Assembly: GCA_963677745.1 (NCBI GenBank)
Contig: OY782391.1
Coordinates: 1,088,001 to 1,152,000, forward strand
Direction: 5' to 3'
DNA from: Candidatus Altimarinota bacterium
GTDB taxonomy: Bacteria; Patescibacteriota; Gracilibacteria; UBA1369
Length of the DNA stretch: 64,000 nucleotides
The translations under genes were made by a program, and so were the position numbers. The notes under the pieces are model-generated. The model saw nothing but the letters and a program-made list of their open reading frames with translations, was not told the DNA's origin and searched no databases. This document shows positions 57,921 to 62,509 of the stretch, piece by piece; the first letter of the stretch is position 1, and each line of letters begins with the position of its first letter.

Positions 57921-58919
57921 CTAGAATTTTACCAGCACCTTTTCCGGACTGAAAGAGATGATTTTAAGATCGGTTCCCGCCGGCAAAACGATATCGCCGG
58001 AATTAACAACATATATTCCTTTTTGCAGGCTGGAGGTCTTGATCAATAGTTTGAGCGAGTTGCTGTCCAGAGTCGCCAGCACTTCGGGAATTCCCTCTAC
58101 GGTCACCAGAATATTTTTTGGCAGCAGCTCTTTTACCGATGAACTCAAATCATCCGCCGTTTTTGCTTCGACCATCAGTGTCTTTCGTTCCTTGCCGGAT
58201 TCCACCGGAGTGTCCGTTCCGTCAACCACGGTCCCGGAATCCGTCCCGGAAGCATTTGTATCCGTAGTGTTATTCTTTTTTCTGATTTCAATATCCGCCT
58301 GAATTACCGGAGGATCAAAACTTACCGTTTTTCCGGAAAGACTCCACTCGGCCGGAGCTTCCAGAGTTATTTTGCGGCTGAAATCGGCTGTTTCCGTGCC
58401 ATCCAAAGTAATTTTTATCGGCAGATTTTGCAGTTCGGAAATGGCACTGGCGGCCCCGCTAATATTCACGGTTTCTGTATCTATTTTCAGGCTCTTGATC
58501 TCGTAATCCTTGGCCGGAGCGCCCGTGATTTCACTTTCCAGGGTAATGTACCTGCTGGTGATGGCCTCCAGTTTAAGTTTCAGTTTGGCCGGTTCCACCG
58601 CCACAATCGCCAGTTTAACATTTTTAGTGGTGAATCCGACCGGCAGGGTATATTCCCCCTCGCCCAGTCCTTCCGCGTCCAGAAACAAATCAAAATCATT
58701 GCTGTTGGCGGTGATGGATCCGGAAGGAGTCTTATAGAGAATTTTTACCCCTTCGATCTCGCTGGCCACACTGACATTTTTTCCCATGTTAATTATTTTA
58801 ACCGGAAGATTCCCGGGAAAAACATAAACATAATTTTCCACTCCCACCACAAACATCCACAAAATAACGGCCGAAATCACAGCCAGCAGTTTGAGATGTA
58901 GATTTTTAAATATATTCAT
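57921..58919 (-). CDS. cdaR: CdaR/YbbR-domain protein
   Basis: KLLAVISAVILWMFV N-terminus, repeated YbbR-like beta domains; directly downstream of cdaA. Confidence 0.75.
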   Translation of the reverse strand: MNIFKNLHLKLLAVISAVILWMFVVGVENYVYVFPGNLPVKIINMGKNVSVASEIEGVKILYKTPSGSITANSNDFDLFLDAEGLGEGEYTLPVGFTTKNVKLAIVAVEPAKLKLKLEAITSRYITLESEITGAPAKDYEIKSLKIDTETVNISGAASAISELQNLPIKITLDGTETADFSRKITLEAPAEWSLSGKTVSFDPPVIQADIEIRKKNNTTDTNASGTDSGTVVDGTDTPVESGKERKTLMVEAKTADDLSSSVKELLPKNILVTVEGIPEVLATLDSNSLKLLIKTSSLQKGIYVVNSGDIVLPAGTDLKIISFSPEKVLVKF

Positions 58920-59785
58920 TGGCTGTCGCGGTAAACCAAATGCTTTTCCTTCTTTTTTCTGTCTTTCGGCTCCAGGACAATTCGCAGCAGATGCTGCAGT
59001 CTGGCCGCATCGATGTCACGCTCCAGCCGGCCGTTCTTGGCAAAACTGATCGAGCCTCTTTCCTCTGAAATCACGATCACACTGGCGTCAGTGTGATCGG
59101 TCAAACCGATTGCCGCTTTGTGCCGGGTCCCATAACTCTTTTCCTTGTTGTCGAAGCTGGTCGGCAGTATGCATGCGGCAGCTTTGATCCTGCCGTTTTC
59201 CACGATCACCGCCCCGTCATGCAGGGGGCCCTTGCCGTGAAAGATCGAAATCAATAATTCCTTGCTCAGCAGGGCGTCCATTTTCACCCCGCTCTCAATA
59301 TATTCTTTCAGCGGAATACCGTGTCGGAACACAATCAGGGCTCCTTCTTTCCTTTCCGAAAGGTAGACGCAGCTGGCTACCGTCTCGGAAATCATTGCGT
59401 CCACCTGCGGGTTTTTCCCGCCGGTCAGAAAAGGCGTATTGCCGATTTTTTCCAGACCCATGCGCAGTTCCTGCTGGAACAGGATGGGAATGGAGATCAA
59501 TAAAATTGTGAAAAACCTGTCCAATAGCCAGCCTACGGCCAGCAGATTAAGTGATTTGCTGATCAGAAAAAGTATAAAAATAATGGATAGCCCCAGCAGA
59601 ACGCTTACCGACCGTGAGCCTTTCAGCATCGAAAAAATGAAATAAAAGGTCAGCGCCACAATTCCAATATCCAGAAGTACCTGCCACAGGCTCATGTCGG
59701 AATAAATCAGATTTTGCCAAAATTCCCGCGCAATATTGGCGATCTGCGATATGCCGCTGGCAATAAAACTGCTGATGGCGTCCAT
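58916..59785 (-). CDS. cdaA: diadenylate cyclase CdaA
   Basis: Three TMs, FQQELR, GALIV, PLHDGAV, GTRHKAA, SEERG. Confidence 0.92.
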   Translation of the reverse strand: MDAISSFIASGISQIANIAREFWQNLIYSDMSLWQVLLDIGIVALTFYFIFSMLKGSRSVSVLLGLSIIFILFLISKSLNLLAVGWLLDRFFTILLISIPILFQQELRMGLEKIGNTPFLTGGKNPQVDAMISETVASCVYLSERKEGALIVFRHGIPLKEYIESGVKMDALLSKELLISIFHGKGPLHDGAVIVENGRIKAAACILPTSFDNKEKSYGTRHKAAIGLTDHTDASVIVISEERGSISFAKNGRLERDIDAARLQHLLRIVLEPKDRKKKEKHLVYRDSQ

Positions 59786-59965: not shown

Positions 59966-61066
59966 TCAGTATGATTTGAAAGCTTTTTGCAGCTTTTTTC
60001 GATTGGCCCAGGCCAGTACCAGTATAATTCCCAGGTAAAGTGTTTCAGCCGGGCCGGTTTTGGCCAATTTCTTGGGAGCATCGGCGGCCGGTTTGAGTTC
60101 CTCAGTTACGGTTGTTTCCTGAGTTTCTGCAGGTTCCAGAGAGGTGATAGGCTCATTATTCTGGGCAGTCATTGTTTCATCAATGGCACTGGTCAGAACA
60201 TTTTCAGTGGTTTCGCCGGCGGCCGTTTCAGGCGTATCAGTGCCGGTTTCGGCCGGTGTTGTCAGAGTGGGACTTCCCGTCCCTACGGTTATGGAAGCTT
60301 TAAGCGCAGGATTATAGGTGGAGTAATATTCAAAAGTGCCATCCTGGTCGAACAAATAACTGAAACTCTGTCCGCTGGTAAGTACCGGGCTGGCAAAACT
60401 TTGTCCGTTGGTGGATGAGCCGATAATAGTCTGATCTTCAGTGCTGGTATTGGTCCAGACCACAGTTGCTCCTTTATCAATTTTTACTGTCGCGGGTTCA
60501 AAGCCAAACAGGGACACGTCAACATTGACGCTGGGGCCTGTACTTTGTGCAACGGTTTCGGGGGTAGTGGAAGAAGTATCGGTACTTTTTTCAGCTACTG
60601 TGGAAGTGTCAGTGTTTGTGGCGGTTTCAGTAGAGTCCAGAGAGGCTACCCCGGCTGTTGGTGTAGTCTGATTGGTTTCGCTGTTTACAGGCGTGGAGCT
60701 GAGCAGGTCGGATTTGAGTTGTAACGGTTCCTGTACCCAGTAAGCCACATATCCGGCAATGCCGACGATAACCAGTGCGGCGATAATTTTTGTCTTGGGA
60801 ATTTTGTCTTCCGATGGTTCAGTTTCTTCCGCGACTACCGCTGCAGCTTCTTCAGCTACTGTTGTTTCTGCAGCCGGGGCTGTTTCTGTCTGCACGGCTA
60901 CCTGGTCGGCGGTTTCAGCGGTTTTATGTGAAATATTCAAGGTGGTCGCCGGTGCTGCTTCCGCTGAACGCATGGTGGCTGGTCCGGTCTGTTCAAACAG
61001 ATCCATCTGATCGGGACTTACCGGTGTTTCGGTTGTCTCTTCTGGCTTGTTTTCTAGCTCGGTCAT
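59966..61066 (-). CDS. surface protein with cupredoxin-like fold and C-terminal xxKTGP sorting-like signal
   Basis: FEPATVKIDKGATVVWTN...SGQSFSYLF...GTFEY; C-terminus LAKTGP + hydrophobic helix + basic tail; internal TM. Confidence 0.75.
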   Translation of the reverse strand: MTELENKPEETTETPVSPDQMDLFEQTGPATMRSAEAAPATTLNISHKTAETADQVAVQTETAPAAETTVAEEAAAVVAEETEPSEDKIPKTKIIAALVIVGIAGYVAYWVQEPLQLKSDLLSSTPVNSETNQTTPTAGVASLDSTETATNTDTSTVAEKSTDTSSTTPETVAQSTGPSVNVDVSLFGFEPATVKIDKGATVVWTNTSTEDQTIIGSSTNGQSFASPVLTSGQSFSYLFDQDGTFEYYSTYNPALKASITVGTGSPTLTTPAETGTDTPETAAGETTENVLTSAIDETMTAQNNEPITSLEPAETQETTVTEELKPAADAPKKLAKTGPAETLYLGIILVLAWANRKKLQKAFKSY

Positions 61067-61189
61067 AGCTTTATTGGTATTTGATAAATCTTCACAGTAT
61101 ATCACAAAAACACCCCGGGATTAATGTTCCGGAGGCCTGTGCAAGCCAAAAGGACTATACAAAAAAAAGAAATGTATTGAAACTCAAAA

Positions 61190-61446
61190 TCCCTGAGTAG
61201 CAGAATCAATTTTAGGCATCAGATTGACCAAGTCCAACGGTAACCGTTTTAAAAGTTACATGCTTTCATTTTAATTGGGAAAGCAACTTTATAAATAAAG
61301 ATTGTTTTCTTTTTAAACTGAAAAATCCTGAAATTATTTCTGTACCCAGGGAAGAGGTTGCCTTTGGTCATACAGGGTTGCCTTGAGGACTGTGTGCCAA
61401 AAAAATTTTAGGCAAAAGTCACAGTCCAAAGGCAACCTTCTCCCTG
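61190..61446 (-). ncRNA. putative structured ncRNA, unit 3 of tandem array
   Basis: Leader hairpin 61347-61446; closing stem 61327-61352 pairs with 61190-61216; internal hairpins. Confidence 0.5.
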
Positions 61447-61479
61447 TGATAGAAACGCTGTTTTTTAATGTTCAAAAAA

Positions 61480-61843
61480 CTCCCTAAACTAACCTCAATC
61501 CCTTAAAAGTAACTTACAACCTGGAAGATTAAATTTCCTTGATAGTCACTTTTCCTTAAGCATTGCTGTTTAAGATTAGTAATTCTCTTTAATATTCTTT
61601 TCTTTTTTATCTTGCGATAAAAATCAGATTGGAACTTAAAGGTCTGTTCCGAAACTTCTCTATCCGGCTTTTGGATAACCACCGAACTGAATATTTCAGC
61701 ATTCTGAAAACCTGGTAGATTTTCAGTAACGACTTTTAAAGTAATTTTAGCTAGTTTAGGGAGAGAGTTTACACAAAATCGTATCAGCTTGATTTTGTGA
61801 AATGTTAATTCCACTTCGTTTTATGCAAACTTTCTCCCTAGAC
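61480..61843 (-). ncRNA. putative structured ncRNA, unit 2 of tandem array
   Basis: Paralogue of 61877-62250 with compensatory changes; 15-bp closing stem 61749-61763 with 61480-61494; two GCAA tetraloops. Confidence 0.7.
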
Positions 61844-61876
61844 CGGTCCTCCTTTTTTTCAAGTATCAATTTAAGA

Positions 61877-62250
61877 CCCCCTAAACCAACTGTCGCCCCT
61901 TAAAAGTAGAAAGCATCTCAGAAGCGCGAAGGATCCAAGATAGAAACTTTTCCCTGAGCATTGCTGCCCAAGACTAGTAATTCTCATTAAACTTTCTTTC
62001 TTACACTTTGTCTTGCGACAAAAGTACAAGATAAAAAATCCAAAAGTTTTCCCCAAAACCTCTTTACTCGGCCTATGGATAACCACCGAACCGATAATTT
62101 TGGCATCCCAGGAACCTGGTGGACTCCTGGAAACGGCTTTCAGGTAACTTCAGCAAGTTTAGAGGGAGAGTATGGCTTCAATCGCAGGTTTGGTTTTTAT
62201 GTTTGTTTTTAAAACCGGTTTGTTATTGAAACCAAACTTTCCCCCTAAAT
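61877..62250 (-). ncRNA. putative structured ncRNA, unit 1 of tandem array
   Basis: Shares tggataaccaccgaac, agcattgctg, tagtaattctc and cccttaaaagta blocks with unit 2; covarying stems. Confidence 0.7.
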
Positions 62251-62301
62251 CTCAATTGGTTACTTGTTAGTTTTTGTCTTTATTTCAAATATCATCATAC
62301 T

Positions 62302-62330
62302 ATGATATACCATAGATTTCACCCTGTCAA
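62302..62330 (-). promoter_or_regulatory. sigma70-like promoter pointing into the ncRNA array
   Basis: Minus strand TTGACA (62330-62325), 17 nt, TATCAT (62307-62302). Confidence 0.65.
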
Positions 62331-62434
62331 GTGTCTAATCCGAAAAAAACTGAAATAGTCCAAATATAGTTTGAAATCTGCATTTGTTTCAGTTAAATTT
62401 ATGCCGCTCACCAATCAAAACCCACCTCAATTGT

Positions 62435-62509
62435 GCCGGGGTAGCTCAGTGGTAGAGCGAAGGACTGAAAATCCTTGCGTCGCCAGTCCGATTCTGGCCC
62501 TCGGCACCA
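62435..62509 (+). tRNA. tRNA-Phe(GAA)
   Basis: GCCGGGG-TA-GCTCAGTGGTAGAGC-G-AAGGA-CTGAAAA-TCCTT...GCCAG-TCCGATT-CTGGC-CCTCGGC-ACCA. Confidence 0.93.

Follow-up and report, generated by a model that had tools for sequence, protein, structure and literature searches.

A probable noncoding operon for a processed structured RNA, hitherto undescribed and specific to one lineage of Gracilibacteria

Bacterial RNAs that are large, intricately folded and strongly covarying are, to our knowledge, rare, and the few that are known have turned out to be ribozymes, the cores of ribonucleoproteins or RNA-only assemblies. ROOL and GOLLD RNAs are often found near tRNA genes, and other stable RNAs, such as those of rRNA operons and the small cytoplasmic RNA (scRNA) of Bacillus, which is cut by RNase III, are excised from flanking stems. 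According to one report, GOLLD, ROOL and OLE form RNA-only homo-oligomers (PMC12286853). Here we describe a locus in a stretch of 64,000 nucleotides (nt) of DNA from a Candidatus Altimarinota bacterium of the Gracilibacteria (the window; positions 1,088,001 to 1,152,000 of contig OY782391.1), where two tandem units of a structured RNA, A and B, lie on the minus strand next to a divergent tRNA-Phe gene (Table 1). We think it probable that the locus is a noncoding operon from which a stable RNA, not described before and limited to one lineage, is released in processed copies, and we are much less confident about why this RNA is made than about what it is.

An original prediction, made from the letters of the window alone, had described two tandem repeats of about 370 nt at this place, and these are indeed minus-strand paralogues at the positions claimed, identical at about 64% of 384 alignment columns (a value derived from the 82% mean column identity of the two rows). 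They share the invariant block TGGATAACCACCGAAC at 62076-62091 and 61672-61687, and the compensatory changes that had been read from their stems recur in the alignment, with four double substitutions in one 9-bp stem (columns 145-148 with 162-165) and a single compensatory GC to AU change in each of two GCAA hairpins (columns 255/264 in the first and 305/318 in the second). Fold z-scores agree with the assignment to the minus strand, being -4.37 for copy A and -5.35 for copy B, as compared with -2.25 for the plus strand of copy A. The broader claim, that of a large structured noncoding RNA maintained under selection, is upheld by covariation over 32 units, by the presence of the RNA in 27 of 36 genomes of its family, by the lack of a conserved reading frame or codon-position bias and by RNA contigs restricted to the unit bodies. 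The paralogy of the 'two copies' thus stands, and they are better described as units of one (probable) noncoding operon.

The consensus structure was derived from an alignment of 32 units from 27 genomes, in which the RNAalifold consensus together with one pseudoknot comprises 78 pairs in 13 helices. Standard pairs occupy 91.4% of the cells. Column shuffles give 75.0%, with none of 500 as high as the real alignment, and the paired cells drop to 40-52% when the partners are displaced by 1-3 columns; changes on both sides are seen in 59 of the 78 pairs. Each unit is composed of a 5' hairpin, P1, and a body of about 280 nt, and the body contains a long terminal helix, the adjacent hairpins P2 and P3, which are equal in length, a helix stack around a third hairpin, a hairpin with a GNRA loop that is kept in nearly all members, and a sixth hairpin. 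Two unpaired stretches of the fold, UGAGAGA..UACUG and AAGUGACUA, are also conserved. The same units were examined for coding potential, and no frame is conserved among them, the longest stop-free stretch varying from 31 to 112 codons and lying in differing frames, while the differences between units A and B are distributed 31/37/33 over the codon positions; with no conserved frame and no excess of changes at third positions, a protein-coding gene is rejected.

The loop of P2 reads C-N-C-C-A and the loop of P3 contains U-G-G-N', such that the two can form four base pairs, NCCA:UGGN'. The variable pair N:N' (columns 175-215) is C-G in 20 units, A-U in eight and G-C in four, and is unpaired in none of the 32; the pairs 176-214 and 177-213 are invariant C-G, and pair 178-212 is A-U in 26 units. 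On a tree from which those eight columns were masked, the N:N' state switches at least four times. This pattern of covariation shows that the kissing contact between the P2 and P3 loops is real. A pseudoknot had been proposed here, and its loop-loop nature holds, although the register does not: CCACC:GGUGG would place a C.U at the central pair in most members of the alignment and is rejected in favor of the covarying NCCA:UGGN' pairing, one register away. As a separate observation, the P1 loop carries GACCCACCUC(C/U)UC in six genomes (loci L058, L038, L062, L063, L073 and L075), a sequence that is absent from the window's own units and resembles the anti-Shine-Dalgarno tail of 16S rRNA. In some of these six genomes it is complementary to GGUGGGUC of the P3 loop, and because of this complementarity the kissing site of the precursor may be contested by P1.

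The organization of the unit ends is built around two competing helices. At the base of P1, UAGGGAGARAGCUG is paired with CAGCUYCCUCCCUA, and the 3' strand of the hairpin (...CUCCCUAAAC) runs on as CUCCCUAAGC, which also pairs with the 3' end of the unit, GUUUAGGGAG, in what we call the closing helix. The closing helix is 98.4% paired, with five of its six pairs changing on both sides, and the P1 base helix is paired in 89.7% of cells, with changes on both sides in seven of ten pairs and a conserved A.C mismatch. Six alignment columns, 122-127, are used by both, and the two helices are therefore mutually exclusive in one molecule. A loose search of the source genome for P1-like hairpins gave noise only, besides the three in this locus.

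Eight runs recorded as RNA contain part of the stretch, and the RNA contigs considered here are Logan contigs from four metatranscriptome runs (X6, X7, X8 and X12) of one study. Those on unit B cover 61483-61757 (275 nt, with one difference), 61483-61739 (no differences) and 61482-61699 (a relative), and those on unit A include 61929-62152 (no differences), 61879-62153 (23 differences, a relative), 61995-62154 and 61899-62050. Within the same stretch, contig depth in the four runs is zero on both P1 hairpins, the spacer, the leader, the terminal long hairpin (sHP) and the tail, and this lack of depth outside the bodies therefore speaks against carry-over of DNA. The 3' stops lie inside GUUUAGG(G), at 61482-61483 in all three unit B contigs and at 61879 in the longest unit A contig, with the remaining unit A contigs stopping short at 61899, 61900 and 61929; the furthest 5' ends are at or just past the AAAC of the closing helix. 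These body-only contigs hint at a stable RNA of about 275-290 nt that is excised from its precursor, with P1 being discarded.

The source genome (G000) is a single contig of 1.336 Mb with the RNA at one locus, and BLAST identifies homologues in near relatives. For the 142-nt core we made one covariance model from nine close sequences (R1) and another from 23 diverse ones (R2), and searched 36 species representatives of the one GTDB family to which the source belongs; R1 found the RNA in 12 of them, a result superseded by R2, which found it in 27, representing 16 of the 25 genera and usually with one match per genome. R2 has no match in 37 genomes from 18 other families of the order, and none in 150 other genomes of the class, where the filters were stricter and 21 candidates were scored per genome, so that the latter result is weak evidence of absence; in five genomes of other families, ordinary coding genes occupy the corresponding position. 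A scan with the core pattern of one genome per GTDB species gave 25 loci, 17 of them confirmed by R1, and these 17 are in metagenome-assembled genomes labelled Candidatus Peregrinibacteria, Peribacteria, Gracilibacteria or 'Patescibacteria group'. All but one (L043) coincide with the family genomes by coordinates or unit boundaries. The other eight, from Streptomyces, Pseudomonas, two Frankia, Turneriella, Anaerolineales, Desulfobacteraceae and a betaproteobacterium, have no R1 hit at E<=0.01 and are attributed to chance, and the core pattern has no matches in 2.9 million viral contigs. A search of genomes of the candidate phyla radiation (CPR) had been suggested; the homologues found belong to one family-level lineage of genomes labelled Peregrinibacteria or Peribacteria and do not extend across the CPR.

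Several features of the locus suggest that the units are transcribed together. The promoter TTGACA-17-TATCAT of the original prediction lies where it had been placed, about 50 nt upstream of the first unit, and a promoter scan found this single promoter-like site ahead of unit A and none between the units; by eye, relatives have the same layout upstream of their first unit, with TTGACA...TAnAAT followed by UAUGAUGAU.UUUGAAAU. The sHP hairpin, of about 100 nt, contains an inverted repeat of 21 nt that is 90% complementary and has a fold z-score of -5.17. A motif search recovers this hairpin in 15 of 16 loci, on the downstream side of the units, and inspection by eye shows a U-run after it in most relatives and operon tails ending in CCGGGGAUUUUUU in the close ones. 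We infer that the locus is a noncoding operon consisting of one promoter, a leader, one to three units and a terminal hairpin.

Five genomes (G000, G001, G002, G014 and G011) have two units by R2, and inspection of 12 further intervals showed that in ten of them one or two more diverged units are present in the 550-1030 nt between tRNA-Phe and the R2 match, each with its own P1, CCCCCAG loop and GAUGGGC partner. One of the genomes (G047) has three units in all, and another (G021) has a protein gene in the interval instead. From the inspected intervals we conclude that arrays of two to three units are common. The order of the paralogues is swapped between the window and a genome of the same genus (G002, locus L003), the upstream unit of the window being closest to the downstream unit there and vice versa, an arrangement that points to recombination within the array. 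In 22 of the 27 genomes the divergent tRNA-Phe (GAA) gene stands less than 1.2 kb ahead of the first listed unit, and in one more the distance is 2.9 kb; it was not seen in G045 (with 7.5 kb available), in G009 (1.4 kb), or in G005 and G022, the contigs of which end about 600 nt upstream. In locus L074 (G019), two direct repeats of about 110 nt with a partial copy of tRNA-Phe were noted by eye about 500-750 nt upstream of the unit.

Taken together, the reading that we favor is as follows. One sigma-70-type promoter would transcribe the leader, the two paralogous units, the terminal long hairpin and the tail, and P1 would form first, during transcription. Once the 3' end has been made, strand exchange would allow the 3' tail to capture the shared CUCCC strand and the closing helix to form, and the 5' strand and loop of P1 would then be removed, the probable agent being an RNase III-type endonuclease specific for double strands, or else the RNA itself. 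The product would be a compact RNA of about 275-290 nt that has five hairpins or helix stacks besides its terminal helix and includes a GNRA loop, the body being locked by the NCCA:UGGN' kiss and probably also by docking of the GNRA loop. The mature RNA would accumulate and act in trans, our guess being that it is either the core of a lineage-specific ribonucleoprotein or a ribozyme; the ribozyme, scaffold and regulatory RNA that had been offered originally are all still candidates.

A number of points weigh against this reading. The 5' ends of the contigs scatter, at 62149-62154 for unit A and at 61757, 61739 and 61699 for unit B, and although metatranscriptomes do provide contigs on the unit bodies, these are assembled contigs from one study, with strand, exact ends and abundance beyond their reach; lack of contig cover over P1 and the other flanking segments proves nothing alone and is no sign of their absence from RNA. 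A terminator scan found no terminator in the window. Nine of the 36 family genomes have no body, and it follows that the RNA is dispensable in some relatives. We inspected five of these nine, and three of them (G017, G004 and G003; loci L084, L085 and L082) keep the promoter, the leader and a P1/sHP-like hairpin by tRNA-Phe, while G006 and G018 have neither, the cupredoxin-like gene being directly beside the tRNA. The sHP hairpin module may thus predate the body, or those three genomes may have lost the body. Finally, self-cleavage would give the same picture as processing by a nuclease.

We consider it doubtful that the units represent a new class of catalytic or self-assembling RNA confined to one lineage of ultra-small bacteria and arranged as an array, in which a disposable 5' guide hairpin would keep an inactive fold until strand exchange and cutting set free the active body of about 280 nt, and in which the tRNA-end-like NCCA loop and its UGGN' receptor would be the core of the active or assembling fold. 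We also think it unlikely that the locus is a self-processing ribozyme array in which each unit cleaves itself out at or near the U/AAAC junction before the body, with the conserved junction nucleotides as the active site. Tandem units giving unit-length, body-only contigs with the same relative 3' stop are what such an array would produce, the compact fold with its kissing loop, GNRA loop and conserved unpaired stretches would suit a ribozyme, and the two competing helices flank the presumed cut; however, none of the known self-cleaving classes in Rfam is matched even at E<=10, the contig ends are imprecise, and a protein nuclease accounts for the same data. Mutually exclusive helices would also suit a cis-acting leader, a riboswitch or attenuator of the downstream cupredoxin-like and cdaA operon with P1 and the closing helix as its switch states, and in the window and its nearest relatives the units do lie upstream of those genes on the same strand, with a U-run following the terminal hairpin in many relatives. 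We nonetheless regard this as quite improbable. The genes downstream of the operon vary by genus, and in several genera those found there (nuclease-like, isochorismatase-like and Lon genes) lie on the other strand. There are one to three units per locus, the RNA contigs end at the body borders, and past the operon tail the cupredoxin-like gene is preceded by an extended -10 element of its own, which by eye is present also in relatives that lack the RNA.

The exact NCCA:UGGN' geometry of the contact, its covarying N, and the constant presence of tRNA-Phe as a neighbor could be taken to indicate a trans-acting sensor or holder of tRNA 3' ends, with UGGN' binding the NCCA end, the internal loop competing for it, and tRNA-Phe as the client. 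This is very unlikely in our view, as N' tracks the RNA's own loop through all three of its states (C:G in 20, A:U in eight and G:C in four units), while the tRNA-Phe of the window ends in ACCA and the tRNA-Phe genes of 10 other genomes are 79-95% identical to it (the discriminator having been read in the window only). Given that similarity, the UGGG or UGGC of most members would not be expected to fit tRNA-Phe, and there is no T-box match. Finally, tRNA genes are common integration sites, and tandem repeats adjoin one here, as they might if a phage, a satellite or a mobile element had left the RNA behind or carried it as cargo. We give this explanation almost no credence: the RNA is at one locus per genome and in a fixed place, it is unmatched among the viral contigs searched, selection on its structure is clear, and no integrase or other mobile gene was seen among the stop-free frames of at least 90 codons around the 17 confirmed loci, where no family search of the flanking open reading frames was made. 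Processing of the RNA from a noncoding operon remains the account that we prefer.

Comparison with described RNA families supports the claim that the RNA matches none in Rfam. In a scan of the window with Rfam 15, two tRNAs only reach the gathering score. Relaxing the threshold to E<=10 for 61100-62450 yields 23 weak hits, each of which falls far short of its cut-off, the best being mir-992 at 27 bits against a cut-off of 79 and on the wrong strand. RNase P RNA is rejected, as the RF00010 match is elsewhere in the source genome (C1:405247-405740, 170.5 bits) and there is no hit in the region of the units; the gene for transfer-messenger RNA (tmRNA) is likewise located elsewhere, and 6S RNA is rejected with its sole RF00013 hit at C1:602254-602414, outside this region. 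That 6S candidate, on the minus strand, scores 41.1 bits, below the cut-off of 46.4, and is the only one in the genome. T-box RNA is rejected, there being no RF00230 row among the 23 hits and no aminoacyl-tRNA synthetase or amino-acid gene downstream. Among the OLE, GOLLD, ROOL, raiA and HEARO models, only GOLLD appears at E<=10, with 9.8 bits against a cut-off of 150.

Signal recognition particle (SRP) RNA received separate attention. The models RF00169, RF01854 and RF01857 have no hit in the source genome, which also has no SRP_SPB or SRP54 domains, the SRP RNA being missing together with Ffh and FtsY; RF00169 has no hit in any of the 36 family genomes, and in the 41 genomes sampled from the order the SRP54 model (PF00448) picks up P-loop hits of about 20 bits and nothing more. 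Absence of SRP subunits from many CPR bacteria is described in a published account (PMC8080830). We considered whether the structured RNA might replace SRP RNA and dropped the idea: loss of SRP54 is order-wide, in the 41 genomes, and the RNA is found in one family, so no link is seen.

Coordinates of the elements of the locus are collected in Table 1. Downstream of the operon in the window, two genes on the minus strand were named by eye, encoding a cupredoxin-like protein with an LAKTG sortase-type C-terminus (59966-61105) and a CdaA-like diadenylate cyclase (58916-59785). The cupredoxin-like gene probably starts at an ATG near 61064, behind its own extended -10 element, rather than at the GTG at 61105. 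A short motif, (A/U)CAUUGAAA(A) or a near variant of it, recurs in many genomes by the presumed transcription start, between the units and after the last unit, its places in the window being 61845-61880, 61455-61475 and 62270-62295. In the source genome it also stands directly after two tRNAs downstream of 16S (C1:143950-144045) and follows few of the other 45 tRNAs. It could be a processing site or a boxA-like antitermination signal; its likeness to the rRNA leader is loose.

Table 1. Elements of the structured RNA locus and its tRNA neighbor, in coordinates of the window
Feature	Position	Strand	Remarks
Sigma-70-type promoter TTGACA-17-TATCAT	62302-62330	-	11/12 positions; divergent from tRNA-Phe
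tRNA-Phe (GAA), conserved divergent neighbor	62435-62509	+	Rfam tRNA hit in window
Unit A, whole (5' hairpin P1 + body)	61875-62249	-	R2 core score 134.8 bits
P1 hairpin, unit A	62161-62249	-	UUUAGGGGGAAAGUUUGG pairs with CCAUACUCUCCCUCUAAA; 3' strand common to closing helix
Body, unit A	61879-62154	-	Extent covered by RNA-library contigs
P2 loop ACCA (NCCA), unit A	62117-62120	-	Alignment columns 175-178
P3 loop UGGU (UGGN'), unit A	62082-62085	-	Kissing partner of P2 ACCA
Unit B, whole (P1 + body)	61478-61842	-	R2 core score 113.4 bits
Body, unit B	61483-61757	-	Extent covered by RNA-library contigs
P2 loop ACCA, unit B	61713-61716	-	Partner UGGU at 61678-61681
Terminal long hairpin sHP	61345-61448	-	Base helix GGGAGAAGGUUG/CAACCUCUUCCC, homologous to P1 base
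Operon tail	61165-61250	-	UUGGUCA element, then CUCAGGGAUUUUGAG + U-run; probable weak terminator

The hosts of this RNA are bacteria labelled Peregrinibacteria or Peribacteria, with genomes of about 1.3 Mb from which much standard machinery is missing. The RNA has kept its position by tRNA-Phe while at least 16 genera diverged, it has undergone repeated duplication and it assembles from environmental RNA, and for these reasons it likely does something important for the organisms that carry it. The family is a narrow one, restricted to one GTDB family, and it provides a case, open to experiment, of two conserved helices that exclude each other around a presumed maturation site, and of a tRNA-end-like NCCA:UGGN' contact that is made inside one RNA. 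If the guide-hairpin reading were true, the array would contain a built-in RNA maturation switch of a kind undescribed for bacterial stable RNAs.

The literature, searched at the level of listings and abstracts and outside supplements and subscription journals, contained no description of this RNA, and we rate it as a new RNA class, the function of which may still prove to be of a known kind. With T-box RNAs it shares a four-base NCCA:UGGN' pairing in which the variable base covaries, in the geometry of a tRNA acceptor end on the T-box bulge; unlike in a T-box, both partners here are loops of one RNA, and no specifier or Stem I is matched in Rfam. It resembles RNase P RNA in being of similar size, in having a terminal helix that joins its ends, and as an apparently stable RNA near a tRNA gene, and the 5' GGGAGAAAG of the units is similar to GAGGAAAG, a conserved stretch of RNase P RNA. 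As in the precursors of rRNA and of Bacillus scRNA, the transcript would be polycistronic and noncoding, its flanks pair, and the mature RNA appears to be cut out within a stem. The product here, however, is no rRNA or SRP RNA, a competing 5' hairpin shares a strand with the processing stem, and the order lacks SRP54-type GTPases. It is also like the orphan large noncoding RNAs (OLE, GOLLD, ROOL, raiA/ModT and HEARO), which similarly run to several hundred nt, fold into many helices with a GNRA loop and have a contact of the pseudoknot type, and which show strong covariation, a narrow or patchy taxonomic distribution and neighboring genes that give no clue to function. Unlike these, the RNA described here is at a fixed chromosomal locus without a viral match, and its units are in arrays, each with a 5' hairpin that is probably removed.

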